A stretch of 40,159 bases of DNA from a virus (taxonomy: Duplodnaviria > Heunggongvirae > Uroviricota > Caudoviricetes): positions 128,001 through 168,159 of IMG/VR virus record IMGVR_UViG_3300029983_000009; one strand, written 5' to 3'. The stretch's first letter is position 1. The number at the start of each line of letters is the position of its first letter. This document shows positions 22,554 through 32,040 of the stretch, in pieces. Below the pieces are notes generated by a model. It searched no databases. It was not told where the DNA came from and was given only the letters and a program-made list of their open reading frames with translations. Both the position numbers and the translations under genes were made by a program.

Positions 22554-23000
22554 ATGAAAAGATTTATAACCATCTCTCAAAATGAAAAAGATTTTTTTAA
22601 AATGATTAATCAAACTGAAAGCGGATTTGATTTAATTGCTACAACAGATCATGCAATGGAATCATTATTAAAGAATATAAATTTTAATAATCAAGATGAT
22701 GAAATTTATATTGCATGGCAGCAAAAATTCAGAACTGAGAACTATTCATTATATAGAAAATGTATTTTTTCAAAACCAGAAAATAATTTTTTTAAATCAC
22801 CAGGATTATACTCAATCAACAAAAAATGTGGAATGAAAATGCATGTTAGTTGTTCTGGTATATCTTATTTTACATCTAATAAAACATTTATAAATAAAAA
22901 TGTTAGATATTCTACTCACACATATAAAGATTCAAAATTATTAACTAGAATGCTAAAAATTGGAGAGTTAAACTCAACTGAATATGAAAATAACTATTAA
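22554..23000 (+). CDS. hypothetical protein (148 aa)
   Basis: ORF preceded by a TATCTTTA box. Confidence 0.5.
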   Translation: MKRFITISQNEKDFFKMINQTESGFDLIATTDHAMESLLKNINFNNQDDEIYIAWQQKFRTENYSLYRKCIFSKPENNFFKSPGLYSINKKCGMKMHVSCSGISYFTSNKTFINKNVRYSTHTYKDSKLLTRMLKIGELNSTEYENNY

Positions 23001-23325
23001 AAAAGGAATTATACCTAATAATATAATCAGACAAATAAAACTTGAGAATATTAATGGTACGAATATAAATAAAGATCCAATAATATACAATTATGGAACT
23101 CAGCCTGAAAATTCAGATGAAGATATTAGGGATCTTCATTTATTTTGCATATCAATTACAATGAGTTTAGTTGGAGGTAGCATACTAATAAATGAAACTG
23201 ATAGAATAGAATATAAGAAATCACAAGATTCTATTAATATAAATACAGAATTAATAAAAATAAGTAATTATATTTCTAATGATAAAAGATGTAATCCTGA
23301 TAAATATAAAAAGAGTAATAATTAA
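22984..23325 (+). CDS. hypothetical protein (113 aa)
   Basis: ORF with a terminator hairpin at its 3' end. Confidence 0.45.
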   Translation: MKITIKKGIIPNNIIRQIKLENINGTNINKDPIIYNYGTQPENSDEDIRDLHLFCISITMSLVGGSILINETDRIEYKKSQDSININTELIKISNYISNDKRCNPDKYKKSNN

Positions 23326-23342
23326 TTATTACTCTTTTTTAT
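23308..23342 (+). terminator. hairpin plus T6
   Basis: AAGAGTAATAA-ttaa-TTATTACTCTTTTTT. Confidence 0.5.
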
Positions 23343-23392
23343 TTAACAACTTTTGATTTTTATAATAATACAATATTATAAAAAATTATATT

Positions 23393-23989
23393 ATGGCATT
23401 AGGGAAAAAAGTTGTGGATAAAAATAAAACCTCAAAAAAAGATGACGCACCAATAGTATTAGTCAAAGGTGAAGATTTCTCAAAAAAATTAAATAATTTT
23501 ATCACACTCAAAGATGAAATTAAAACAAAAACATCAGAACAAAAATTAATAGATAATTATATTAAAGAAATTGGGCTTAAAGAATATATAAATCTATATA
23601 ATTCAATGAAATGTAATCCAGAAACTATCAAGTTACAAAGTGACGATGGTAAAAAAATTATGTTTTTAGCTATGAAAAAATATTCAGGCACAATTGATGA
23701 AGAAAGAGCGGAAGAACTTCGTGAAAAATATGGTGATGATTTTATAGTAGAAAAATCTGAAGTTATCATGAACAATGAAATATTAGATAAACATAATGAT
23801 AAACTTGAAGAACTTATCATGAGTGCTGATTTTATGACAGATGACGAAAAAGATGATTTATTTATAAATAAGATTACATACAGTATTAAAAATGAAGCTC
23901 TTGATGACGCATTTATTATAGCTAAAGGAAATGTAAATGAATTTATTAGTGACATAAGTCCTGTTCTGATGTTAAAAGATACTAAATGA
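23393..23989 (+). CDS. hypothetical acidic protein (198 aa)
   Basis: ORF. Confidence 0.5.
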   Translation: MALGKKVVDKNKTSKKDDAPIVLVKGEDFSKKLNNFITLKDEIKTKTSEQKLIDNYIKEIGLKEYINLYNSMKCNPETIKLQSDDGKKIMFLAMKKYSGTIDEERAEELREKYGDDFIVEKSEVIMNNEILDKHNDKLEELIMSADFMTDDEKDDLFINKITYSIKNEALDDAFIIAKGNVNEFISDISPVLMLKDTK

Positions 23990-24033
23990 TTTATATATTT
24001 ATCTCTTAATTTTCATATATCACAAAAAACATG

Positions 24034-24041
24034 TATCTTTG
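24034..24041 (+). promoter_or_regulatory. TAnnTTTG box (TATCTTTG) driving the micro-ORF and repeat locus
   Basis: Identical octamer to 20360. No long ORF lies downstream. Confidence 0.35.
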
Positions 24042-24087
24042 CATTGTAATTAAAACTCAATATATAAACTCTAAAAAATTATTTAAT

Positions 24088-24123
24088 ATGATAAAAAGTT
24101 GTAATTCACCGCCAAGGCAATAA
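24088..24123 (+). other. micro-ORF 1, encoding MIKSCNSPPRQ
   Basis: ATG...TAA. GC-rich core TCACCGCCAAGG inside an AT-rich spacer. A TATCTTTG box lies about 50 nt upstream. Confidence 0.3.
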
Positions 24124-24304
24124 ACTATAAATTATAATAAACTAATAGATAAAGCCAAAAAAGCAAAATTATAGATAAATAATAGATAATATAGAAAATA
24201 TAGAAAATATAGAAAATATGAAAACTAGTTGCAACTCACCGCCAAGGTAATAGATATAAAATATAAAATATAAAATATAATAGATAAAGCCAAAAAAGCA
24301 AAAA
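24097..24304 (+). repeat. ~130-bp direct repeat in two copies, with embedded 9-nt and 8-nt tandem triplets
   Basis: AGTTGYAAYTCACCGCCAAGG...TAATAGATAAAGCCAAAAAAGCAAAA occurs at 24097-24168 and again at 24227-24304. Between the copies lie (AAAATATAG)x3 and (AATATAAA)x3. Confidence 0.6.
24218..24250 (+). other. micro-ORF 2, encoding MKTSCNSPPR
   Basis: Second copy of a ~130-bp direct repeat. Within the CNSPPR codons it differs from copy 1 only at two synonymous third positions (tgt/tgc and aat/aac). Confidence 0.3.
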
Positions 24305-24305
24305 T

Positions 24306-24344
24306 GAAAAAAAAGTCATTCTTAAATATAAGAATGACTTTTTC
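24306..24344. terminator. bidirectional hairpin serving the micro-ORF locus on the plus strand and gene 24362..24838 on the minus strand
   Basis: AAAAAAAAGTCATTCTTA-aatat-TAAGAATGACTTTTT. Confidence 0.5.
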
Positions 24345-24361
24345 CATATAATTTAATTGTA

Positions 24362-24838
24362 TTATACTTCTTCTGCTGCTTCTTGAGCATTTTCTAATTT
24401 CTTAGCAAGATTAATACCTTCTTCACCTAATTCTCCATTATTCAATTTATCAATAATATCGTTGTAATGTTTTAACTCAATGTTAACTTCATCAACAACT
24501 TCTTCATCAACATCTTTTCTTTTAAATAATGATGCACTTTTTTGTCCTAATCTTGTTATTAAATCTGCAAATTCCTTACCACGCTCACCTAATTTATAAT
24601 TTCTAAGTAATTCTATTGCTCCACTAGTTGCTACAGAAGCAATGTTTCTTCCAATTAAGCCTACCGCTAATGCATCAATTGAAATCCCTAGCCAATAATA
24701 AACTTGCTCTAATGAACTTAATGATGACGCATGAGTAAATAATTCAGCCCATACATTTTCATTTATTTTATCTTTGTTTTCTTTGTTTTCTTTGTTTTCT
24801 TCTGATACAAATGAATCAAAATATTTAATTTTTTTCAT
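24362..24838 (-). CDS. hypothetical protein with an ENKENKENK repeat
   Basis: N-terminus MKKIKYFDSF resembles the family N-terminus. The tandem tttctttgtt repeat in the DNA encodes ENKENK. Confidence 0.5.
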   Translation of the reverse strand: MKKIKYFDSFVSEENKENKENKDKINENVWAELFTHASSLSSLEQVYYWLGISIDALAVGLIGRNIASVATSGAIELLRNYKLGERGKEFADLITRLGQKSASLFKRKDVDEEVVDEVNIELKHYNDIIDKLNNGELGEEGINLAKKLENAQEAAEEV

Positions 24839-24879
24839 AATTCTTATTTTATTTTTATTTTATAACCTATATATAAATT

Positions 24880-25404
24880 TTATATATTGAATTTATCAGC
24901 ATTTAATATATATGATAATTCTTTTTTTACATTAGAACTAAAATTGTCTGAATATTTTTTATAATATTCTTTAAATTTTGATAAATCTGTGAAATTAGAT
25001 ACTACTTCAATTATTTTATTATCCAATTTATCAATCAAATCAGGTTTATAATATTTATAAATTTTATCCTCTATCTTAAATATTGAATTTCTATTAACTT
25101 GTGTAGAAGAATTAATATTTTTTTCTTTAATAAATTTATCTATATTATTGTAAAAACTATTTTTATCAGAATATGAATTATTTATTCCAATAAGATTATT
25201 GAAAATTGTTCTATATTCAAATCTATCGTATTCTAGTTCAGATAAAGTTAAGATATCAATTTTATCTAAAATGTTCAATTTTTTTATATAATCAGTCATA
25301 AAATCAGTGAGTAAATTATCTTCTTCTGTAGTTAAATATTTATATTCTGAGCGTTTATTGTAATCAGATGACTCTCTTCCTTCAAATGTTTTTAAATATT
25401 TCAT
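24880..25404 (-). CDS. MKxIKTYE...KFN(I/L) family protein
   Basis: MKYLKTFEGR ... ADKFNI. Confidence 0.55.
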   Translation of the reverse strand: MKYLKTFEGRESSDYNKRSEYKYLTTEEDNLLTDFMTDYIKKLNILDKIDILTLSELEYDRFEYRTIFNNLIGINNSYSDKNSFYNNIDKFIKEKNINSSTQVNRNSIFKIEDKIYKYYKPDLIDKLDNKIIEVVSNFTDLSKFKEYYKKYSDNFSSNVKKELSYILNADKFNI

Positions 25405-25736
25405 ATATTAAATTTTTTTGTTTCTAACTTCATTTTTAATTCCTCAATTGTTTTACTATGTTCAACTATTCTACGAATATCAAAATTTCTTGTACATAAA
25501 TCATTTTTAATATTAAAATAACTTTTTATACTTTCAGGTACGTCATCATATAATACATAAATATCAGTATTTTTATGCCTATTATCAATACTGTATATTT
25601 TTCCAATCGTACTATTTATAAAATTTTCTATATCTGTCAGTTTTTGAGTATACTTAGATATATTAATTTTAACTAATACATAATCTCCAACTGTTAATTC
25701 ATCTTCTATATTTTCATAAAATTTAAAAATTTTCAT
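25401..25736 (-). CDS. MKxIKTYE...KFN(I/L) family protein
   Basis: MKIFKFYENI...GDYVLV... ending TKKFNI. ATGA overlap with the downstream member. Confidence 0.55.
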   Translation of the reverse strand: MKIFKFYENIEDELTVGDYVLVKINISKYTQKLTDIENFINSTIGKIYSIDNRHKNTDIYVLYDDVPESIKSYFNIKNDLCTRNFDIRRIVEHSKTIEELKMKLETKKFNI

Positions 25737-31793: not shown

Positions 31794-31794
31794 G

Positions 31795-31866
31795 TTCTCA
31801 CACCAGGAATCGGACCTGGATTATTTGTTCCAAAAACAAATGTAATAGCCTTTATACCATATGAGA
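31795..31866 (-). tRNA. tRNA-like gene, anticodon UUG (Gln) read by eye, with an atypical T-loop (C55)
   Basis: Minus strand reads TCTCATA/TGTGAGA acceptor, 3-bp D stem, anticodon stem TTTGT/ACAAA with loop TTTTGGA, and T arm CCAGG-TCCGATT-CCTGG. 72 nt cloverleaf. Confidence 0.45.
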
Positions 31867-31874
31867 ATGTATTG

Positions 31875-31945
31875 TTGTTCATGAAAGGATCAAACTTTCT
31901 CTCCAAAATCCAAATTTTTGTGTGCTATCTTTACACCAATGAACA
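31875..31945 (-). tRNA. tRNA-like gene, anticodon UUG (Gln) read by eye, with a non-canonical T-loop
   Basis: Perfect 7-bp acceptor TGTTCAT/ATGAACA. Anticodon stem CAAAA/TTTTG with loop ATTTGGA. T arm GAAAG-TTTGATC-CTTTC. Confidence 0.4.
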
Positions 31946-31955
31946 ATATAATTTG

Positions 31956-32040
31956 TCGCCTTAGTGGGGTTCGAACCCACAAGCTCATATGAGCATCAGT
32001 TTCAAAGACTGACATGTTTAGCCAATTCCATCACAAGGCA
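31956..32040 (-). tRNA. tRNA-like gene with a long variable arm (type II) and apparent anticodon UUG
   Basis: Canonical T arm GTGGG-TTCGAAC-CCCAC. Anticodon stem TCAGT/ACTGA with loop CTTTGAA. Variable-arm hairpin GCTCA-TAT-TGAGC. Acceptor has G-U pairs at both ends. 85 nt. Confidence 0.45.

Follow-up and report, generated by a model that had tools for sequence, protein, structure and literature searches.

A module of tandem 8-15-codon micro-genes and a conserved sequence box in an uncultured clade of very large AT-rich phages

Ribosome arrest at consecutive prolines close to the end of small open reading frames (ORFs) is among the described phenomena nearest to the subject of this study, a module of two micro-ORFs and a repeated sequence box (the B box) within a 372-nt intergenic gap of a tailed-phage genome segment (IMG/VR record IMGVR_UViG_3300029983_000009, positions 128,001 to 168,159; this whole stretch of 40,159 nt is hereafter called the window). 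RxPP motifs with A or G, and partly D or S, at the second residue arrest ribosomes near the C-termini of small ORFs, and in the RAPP-like core R-[A/G]-P-P an R-to-A change abolishes the arrest (PMC12992588). Such peptides, among them ApdA, ApdP and the RGPP/RAPP small ORFs, are encoded by tens to hundreds of codons (PMC12992588, PMC10951233). EF-P-dependent pauses at XPPX sequences occur inside normal proteins, are strengthened by D or A before and by W, D, N or G after the proline pair (PMC4176338), and their strength is tuned by the choice of proline codon pair, as in CadC-type pauses (PMC12856214). In the Salmonella leaders mgtL and mgtP, very short ORFs with Pro codons, some together with acidic residues, sense the progress of the ribosome and control downstream genes through alternative stem-loops (PMC3641672, PMC12856214). 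Finally, the bar-type minigenes of lambda, tiny phage ORFs of 2-3 codons without peptide conservation, and 'hungry codons', i.e. rare codons near the start that behave like tRNA-sequestering minigenes, lead to peptidyl-tRNA drop-off and tRNA sequestration (PMC2490762).

The gap is bounded by gene 23393-23989 (+) on one side and the convergent gene 24362-24838 (-) on the other, and the TATCTTTG box, the two micro-ORFs and the hairpin terminator reported in an initial annotation of this DNA are all present where it had placed them (Table 1). Chance is an unlikely source of the repeated parts, since the GC-rich 12-mer TCACCGCCAAGG occurs twice in the 40 kb and nowhere else even with 2 mismatches (expected 0.12), and the 25-mer AATAGATAAAGCCAAAAAAGCAAAA has two exact occurrences in the 40 kb with none in all shuffles, both far above the shuffled expectation. 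The annotation had described a direct repeat of ~130 bp, of which the two copies stand and the continuity does not: a block A of ~30 nt recurs at a spacing of 130, a block B of 25 nt recurs at a spacing of 135, and the spacers between blocks A and B do not align between the repeat copies. Block B, which had not been singled out, is the most conserved part of the module. Likewise, what had been taken for two sets of triplicated repeats proved to be a first array of period 9 with 6.4 degenerate copies and a second of period 7 (ATATAAA x5) rather than 8. Using the flanking 198-aa protein, and the B-box pattern in IMG/VR, to recover relatives, the module was found at 15 loci on related AT-rich phage contigs (45 to 531 kb; designated here by L and a number), with one to three micro-ORFs per locus and 27 in total. 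This comparison confirms, at the level of sequence, that the two micro-genes are real and non-random, and that a clade of very large phages has kept them.

The 27 micro-ORFs share the consensus M-x-[KN]-(x)-C-[NH]-[SGD]-P-P-x(0-6)-stop and each comprises an ATG, 7-14 sense codons and a stop (8-15 codons), with TAA used in 24. The first Pro is present in 27/27 and the second in 23/27, so that PP is found in 23/27; the residue before the first Pro is always S, D or G (S 13, D 8, G 6), with P-P in 5 of the 8 units that have D. Cys is present in 23/27 and Asn or His in 24/27, the residue three before the second Pro being N in 17, H in 7, R in 2 and K in 1, and both R copies have P-S or P-T. Among the 23 units with PP, the following residue is R or K in 6 each, S in 4, I in 2, and D, N, T, Y or stop in 1 each. 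The first Pro is codon 6-8 (23 units tabulated), and 0-6 codons separate the second Pro position from the stop (27 units).

At the nucleotide level, the first Pro codon begins with CC in 27/27 with a variable third base (G14 C6 T5 A2), the middle base at the second Pro position is C in 27/27, the Arg codon is AGG or AGA, and the Ser codon switches family, being TCA in the window clade and AGT elsewhere. A GC core conserved as nucleotides is not what the relatives carry, since third codon positions vary freely (CCG/CCT/CCA/CCC; AGG/AGA; TCA vs AGT) while C-[NH]-[SGD]-P-P stays. Within C-N-S-P-P-R the two copies of the window differ only at TGT/TGC and AAT/AAC, as the annotation had stated, and the core of the second copy in L139 differs from that of the window by three changes, all synonymous. 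Intact ORFs, wobble variation, the Ser codon switch and synonymous-only changes together indicate that selection acts on translation, and it is very probable that the plus-strand micro-ORFs are under selection at that level. The idea of a selected peptide reading frame, first drawn from two copies, thus gains the support of 27 micro-ORFs from 15 loci; relatives in which frameshifts or stops disrupt the ORF while the GC core is kept, which would have favoured an RNA or DNA element, were not encountered, frameshifts and internal stops being found in 0/27. The minus-strand mirror frame (L-G-G), which shares the same wobble sites, was rejected for its inconsistent start and stop, and a 30-codon ORF from the ATG at 24031 is an N-terminal extension that is not conserved in relatives.

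Decoding of the prolines appears to be selected as well. In the 29 larger ORFs of the window, Pro is encoded by CCA (56%), CCT (40%), CCG (3%) and CCC (1%), the overall G+C content at third codon positions (GC3) is 0.10, and only 2 PP occur in 7937 aa. In the 23 micro-ORF units tabulated, both Pro positions have a GC3 of 0.74, compared with 0.13 at Cys and 0.00 at S/G/D. CCG or CCC is used in 20/27 at the first Pro position and in 19/27 at the second, hence ~72% at codons 6-9 vs 4% in the genes of the window, 'rare' being measured here against phage genes only, and at least one G/C-ending codon is found across the two Pro positions in 26/27 units. Such position-specific use of G/C-ending Pro codons points to selection on how the prolines are decoded and not on the peptide alone.

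The second constant of the module is the B box. Its core GCCAAAAAAGC (11 bases; 16 bases shared in most copies) is identical in 18/20 copies, the other two sharing one A-to-G change, and this constancy spans phages whose neighbouring protein is 52-64% identical. With the extended consensus ATAATAGAWAA-GCCAAAAAAGC-AAAW, the box lies 20-54 nt past a micro-ORF stop, always in the same orientation, and the core is found downstream of the micro-ORFs at every related locus whose sequence reaches past them. On this evidence the B box may be the site of an RNA or DNA recognition event that the whole clade has kept. Its reading as a coding sequence (A-K-K-A), a tmRNA-like resume site, a bypass landing site or a slippery site was rejected because of upstream in-frame stops in some lineages, an inconsistent frame and unconserved tails. 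ARAGORN detected no tmRNA. A role as a general promoter was rejected too, as TATAATAG and the B box are not upstream of other genes.

The remaining parts of the locus would make it a short autonomous transcription unit. A promoter role of the region 24007..24041 is probable from its near-identity in the window, L139, L140 and L168, where the flanking spacer is divergent. The following leader showed no stable structure on folding, and leaders of similar type (CACTCT..TTATTAATATG) are present in L175 and L302. The terminator hairpin (24310-24343) has perfect arms of 15 bp and a loop of 4 nt, is the sole terminator-like site found by scanning 23000-25500, and could serve the micro-ORF transcript and the convergent gene 24362-24838(-) alike. 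Folding of the transcript, a check called for by the annotation, showed that this terminator is its only stable fold and that the micro-ORF units are unstructured: plus-strand units are no more stable than shuffled sequences (z -0.47 to +0.90; minimum free energy -2 to -6 kcal/mol per 100 nt), and folding of the units on the minus strand was not significant either. These values lend no support to a riboswitch or attenuator fold. Using Rfam 15 at gathering and permissive thresholds, the window gave only tRNAs elsewhere and, at the locus, only sub-threshold terminator-like matches, and four relatives gave no matching family. Literature searches with CNSPP, CNGPP, CHSPP, CHDPP and GCCAAAAAAGC returned nothing relevant. 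The combination of micro-ORF and B box therefore seems undescribed in the libraries searched. Hydrophobic ORFs of 27-40 codons also arise on the minus strand of the locus, which is rich in T (24225-24347(-) and 24236-24319(-)); one of them begins within the terminator and finishes PWR-stop in the GC core. These ORFs reflect base composition and are not kept in relatives.

The reading that we tentatively prefer is a stand-alone translated small RNA, in which a ribosomal pause would be the selected property and the B box a single-stranded recognition element. In this scheme a small phage transcript with its own promoter and its own terminator would be translated by ribosomes that load on the A-rich leader without a Shine-Dalgarno sequence and decode 5-7 codons, and the ribosome would then slow or arrest at the small-residue-Pro-Pro sequence, 0-6 codons ahead of the stop, with a nascent chain of 7-9 residues. 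From the very short ORF, the small-residue-Pro-Pro near the stop and the rarest Pro codons we infer a slowing of ribosomes, and the position-specific use of these codons strengthens the stalling or leader peptide that had been proposed for this locus; the small RNA with coding capacity, suggested beside it, fits as well. The pause, and not a long-lived peptide, would be what selection maintains, as in RAPP-type or di-prolyl arrest peptides and in 'hungry-codon' minigenes. The paused or aborting ribosome could gate the fate of the B-containing 3' RNA (stability, processing or access of a partner), or it could tie up prolyl-tRNA and ribosomes, and the B box would act as a sequence-specific recognition element for a protein or RNA partner.

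The likeness to RAPP-like peptides lies in the four-residue core, polar or basic-small-Pro-Pro, in the position of this core only a few codons ahead of a small ORF's stop and in the little need for a long N-terminal sequence, with S/G/D in place of the A/G (partly D/S) of the known peptides. In contrast to them, the ORFs here have only 8-15 codons, possess neither an N-terminal localisation signal nor a co-oriented regulated gene downstream, and are followed by an invariant RNA box, and arrest is predicted from sequence. With XPPX pauses the module shares PP, preceded by Asp in 5/23 PP units, and with CadC-type tuned pauses a choice of Pro codons that departs strongly from genomic usage; unlike in these proteins, the ORF here is essentially the motif. 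The HDPP, KDPP and RDPS units recall the Pro codons with acidic residues of mgtL and mgtP, of which neither the alternative stem-loops nor the controlled downstream genes are found here. Rare Pro codons at codons 6-9 fit the geometry of minigenes, and the ORFs are very short as minigenes are, whereas bar minigenes are shorter still and lack a conserved peptide; tRNA sequestration by the present module is a prediction.

Several points weigh against this preferred reading. What speaks for pausing at Pro-Pro is the motif and the codons. RAPP-type arrest depends on an Arg that most units lack, N or H occupying its place in 24/27, and neither S nor G ahead of PP counts as one of the strongest di-prolyl contexts, which only a minority of the units match (PMC4176338). 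The rarity of the Pro codons is measured against phage genes only. In the window, as in most relatives whose downstream sequence was read, the neighbour beyond the terminator is convergent, and the gene that an arrest peptide would classically control is thus lacking. A pause alone accounts neither for the conservation of Cys (23/27) and N/H nor for the role of the B box, and no complement of the B box, G-U pairs allowed, was found in ~100 kb of related phage DNA. The 27 micro-ORF copies are, moreover, not phylogenetically independent. A bolder form of the same idea, which we consider unlikely, is a 'translation trap', in which highly expressed micro-ORFs would stall or abort host ribosomes at Pro-Pro in phage-avoided codons and thereby sequester or report on prolyl-tRNAs, EF-P or ribosomes, coupled to a partner-recruiting B box.

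Those same Cys and N/H positions lead to the strongest rival, in which the peptides themselves are the product: Cys-containing peptides of 9-15 aa from tandem precursor genes would be modified in the manner of radical SAM substrates, bind metal (Cys-His/Cys-Asn) or serve as a signal released on lysis, with the B box and spacers as expression elements. Nearly the whole peptide is indeed constrained, and the tandem, slightly different copies are those typical of precursor-peptide loci. Genes around the locus in relatives also lend it some support. In two lineages (L155/L164; L121/L170) a radical SAM protein of 226 aa is encoded between the 198-aa gene and the locus, whose best NCBIfam matches include peptide maturases, but also MoaA and cofactor maturases, all far below the family cut-offs; a co-occurrence search with it returned only contigs already known. 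A conserved 49-62-aa protein (..FDWIKEFVFS..LFLVDCDGKIVEY..) is the direct upstream neighbour of the locus in four lineages (L155/L164, L170, L151, L302), and rubrerythrin-, EncFtn- or ferritin-like genes are often convergent to the locus in relatives. Yet the 40-kb window holds neither a radical SAM gene nor a homologue of the small protein nor a ferritin-like gene, and neither a radical SAM gene nor a small-protein homologue adjoins the locus in the window clade, L141, L146 or L150. Precursors of ribosomally synthesised and post-translationally modified peptides have an adjacent maturase and a leader region; here the 40-kb window encodes no maturase, only 2 lineages have a generic radical SAM gene near the locus, the peptides have no room for a leader or recognition sequence, and no signal peptide or export gene was found. 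Dual-function small RNAs (sRNAs) and tiny stand-alone peptide genes such as mccA likewise combine a short transcript, a very small peptide and conserved non-coding sequence. The module has no sequence or structural relation to these, no Rfam match and no adjacent maturation genes in the window. A product-based explanation also leaves the position-specific rare Pro codons and the invariance of the B box unexplained. We regard it as rather improbable, though with a real chance of being right.

Distinctly unlikely, although compatible with the favoured explanation and not exclusive of it, is a small regulatory RNA in which the single-stranded B box would be a seed or protein-binding site, as in sRNAs derived from 3' untranslated regions, and the micro-ORFs would be secondary, i.e. 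stabilising or dual-function. That the B core is better conserved than the micro-ORFs argues for it, as do the location of the box on the transcribed strand in all cases, near a terminator or a structured RNA with compensatory changes, the enrichment of ATAGAWA around it, and the putative promoter and terminator that the unit has of its own. Codon-periodic conservation, 27 intact ORFs and the bias towards rare codons are left unexplained by such an RNA, no Rfam family matches it, and the B box as a seed for phage targets was rejected for want of a complementary site in the ~100 kb of related phage DNA available.

In many relatives a conserved ~60-nt RNA follows the B box, with the sequence AAGACUAAC..CCAAGAUUCAAAAGUCUAUCUUGGCUGUUAGAAUAGAUARG, at L141 2090-2150, L146 3915-3975, L155 (-) ~1600-1690, L162 9620-9790 (two copies), L170 5985-6050, L175 (-) ~650-740 and L302 10040-10100. 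Compensatory changes are observed in its helix 1 (CUAAC/GUUAG, CUGAC/GUCAG, CUGAU/AUCAG) and helix 2 (CCAAGAA/UUCUUGG, CCAUAU/AUAUGG, CCAAAAU/AUUUUGG), and a pseudoknot is possible, as the loop AGUCU is complementary to the 5' AGACU. This RNA has no Rfam match and is absent from the window. In L141, a tRNA-like element (623-681) without a D arm, with a 7-bp acceptor stem and the perfect T arm GUGGGUUCGAUUCCCAC (Rfam tRNA, 30 bits), lies 1.3 kb upstream of the micro-ORF locus, and its central hairpin contains an exact B core, GCCAAAAAAGC; that this 11-mer is a coincidence is unlikely.

A DNA element, either an iteron-type origin or a protein-binding array of ATAGAWA repeats and an A-tract box with incidental ORFs, is highly improbable. 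Repeat arrays, a feature of iteron origins such as the annotation had considered, do exist (ATAGAWA, enriched across the locus, occurs 8 times in 300 nt vs 0.29 expected, besides the 9- and 7-nt tandem arrays), copy number differs among population variants, and the AT-rich region lies at a convergent gene junction, but iterons cannot yield wobble variation with a fixed CC, a Ser codon-family switch and a kept ATG/stop spacing, all motifs point the same way with respect to the promoter, the skew shows no inflection other than that given by gene orientation, and no initiator gene was identified, the 198-aa neighbour being without an informative fold match. Just as improbable is a classical leader-peptide attenuator, in which micro-ORF translation would decide whether transcription passes the terminator, either to reach a downstream gene or to run antisense to the convergent one. 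The locus does have a short ORF with special codons ahead of an intrinsic terminator, and in L167 the next ORF is co-oriented ~45 nt past the terminator, but this is the only co-oriented neighbour seen, the next gene being convergent in the window, L140, L155/L164, L170, L300 and L302 and read as convergent in L141, L146 and L150, unlike the same-strand biosynthetic or transport genes of known attenuators, while no mutually exclusive terminator and antiterminator hairpins form over the leader ORF, the RNA between ORF and terminator is unstructured, and the stop-to-terminator distance is long and variable.

The distribution of the module was followed through ~80 metagenome homologues of the neighbouring 198-aa protein, whose presence on contigs up to 531 kb places the window in an uncultured clade of very large AT-rich phages. 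The window (~23% GC) encodes a gp32-like single-strand DNA-binding protein, a glycosyltransferase, ankyrin and pentapeptide proteins and tRNAs, and no homologous DNA was found in GenBank phages. Shine-Dalgarno sequences are absent from genes and micro-ORFs alike, which together with the TAnnTTTG-type box makes a pattern that we take to be of Bacteroidota type, so that the host presumably belongs there. The 198-aa protein gave no Pfam, NCBIfam or informative PHROG match, and its AlphaFold model (pLDDT 81) no informative fold match. A 15-mer around the GC core gave only chance matches in IMG/VR, in GC-richer contigs, and the back-translated pattern MKNC[NH]xPP only known loci and one chance match. 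The B-box pattern, searched over 185,579 bacterial and archaeal genomes, gave at least 120 loci with no real unit among the matches listed, which suggests that the module is absent from cellular genomes.

Nine contigs carry a 198-aa flanking protein identical to that of the window, and in 6/9 the gap is identical, L138 being identical up to its contig end. In L135 (699-935) a 135-nt deletion between the two B boxes has left a single hybrid unit with B copy 1 lost, and L134 (1540-1902) has one 9-nt unit fewer; both variants belong to the species of the window and may reflect either a true difference in copy number or a collapse during assembly. In the nearest of the other species (L139, L168) there are two micro-ORFs with no B box after the first, and the absence of this box there and its loss in L135 imply that the B-box duplication in the window is recent. 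These comparisons thus indicate that the tandem duplication of the window is recent and that its copy number probably varies within the population.

Beyond the convergent gene, the adjacent genes 24880-25404(-) and 25401-25736(-) resemble a paralogous family (start MKY/IxKxFE.., end ..KFNI or ..YNI) that is repeated several times in relatives (L164 2485-3691, L170 6523-7020). At 31794-32040 (-) of the window, Rfam reports three adjacent tRNA-like genes and ARAGORN two, both Gln; by eye all three anticodon loops read UUG with very different bodies, and in the first (32040-31956, 85 nt) a body of Leu/Ser/Tyr type, with its long variable arm, is combined with a Gln anticodon.

Table 1. Elements of the micro-ORF locus in the window, with upstream genes and micro-ORF orthologues in relatives
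Feature	Position	Strand	Remarks
Conserved block TAATTTTCATATATCA	24007-24022	+	part of the promoter-like region 24007..24041
TAnnTTTG-type box TATCTTTG	24034-24041	+	putative promoter box, end of the promoter-like region
A-rich leader	24042..24087	+	without Shine-Dalgarno; ends ...ACTCTAAAAAATTATTTAAT ahead of ATG; kept in the window clade
Micro-ORF 1, MIKSCNSPPRQ-stop	24088..24123	+	11 codons + TAA; ATG ATA AAA AGT TGT AAT TCA CCG CCA AGG CAA TAA
B box copy 1, AATAGATAAAGCCAAAAAAGCAAAA	24144..24168 (core 24154-24164)	+	exact 25-nt duplicate
Degenerate 9-nt tandem array AAAATATAG	24166..24224	+	6.4 copies, within ATAGAWA-rich spacer (TRF)
Micro-ORF 2, MKTSCNSPPR-stop	24218..24250	+	10 codons + TAA; ATG AAA ACT AGT TGC AAC TCA CCG CCA AGG TAA
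7-nt tandem array ATATAAA	24254..24288	+	~5 copies, spacer (TRF)
B box copy 2, core GCCAAAAAAGC	24279..24303 (core 24289-24299)	+	exact copy, directly upstream of the terminator
Bidirectional intrinsic terminator	24310..24345	both	A-tract, stem, loop, T-tract; fold and terminator scan
Radical SAM protein, L164	4700-5377	-	upstream of micro-ORF locus
Radical SAM protein, L121	4647-5360		upstream of micro-ORF locus
49-62-aa protein, L164	4443-4610	-	
49-62-aa protein, L170	5612-5761		
49-62-aa protein, L151	1159-1344		
49-62-aa protein, L302	9366-9515		
Micro-ORF 1 orthologues			MKKSCNSPPRQ-stop (L139), MKKHCNSPPIN-stop (L140), MEKSCNSPPIN-stop (L168)
Micro-ORF 2 orthologues			MEDSCNSPPR-stop (L139; CCT CCG AGA), MKNSCNSPPR-stop (L168)

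Genes of 8-15 codons escape gene callers, and none is listed in the called-gene tables of these contigs; the comparative data reveal one family of this size on whose translation selection clearly acts. Should the pause reading hold, the module would be an arrest- or minigene-type element without a regulated downstream gene and with deliberate use of the rarest Pro codons, which would add to the roles known for pausing driven by nascent chains and codons and provide a compact testable system of a 33-nt ORF and an 11-nt box. If instead the product is the peptides, few conserved peptides known to be directly encoded would be as short, the 7-residue microcin C precursor (MccA) being one of them. 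A translation trap, should it be true, would represent a new mode by which phages manipulate or sense host translation.

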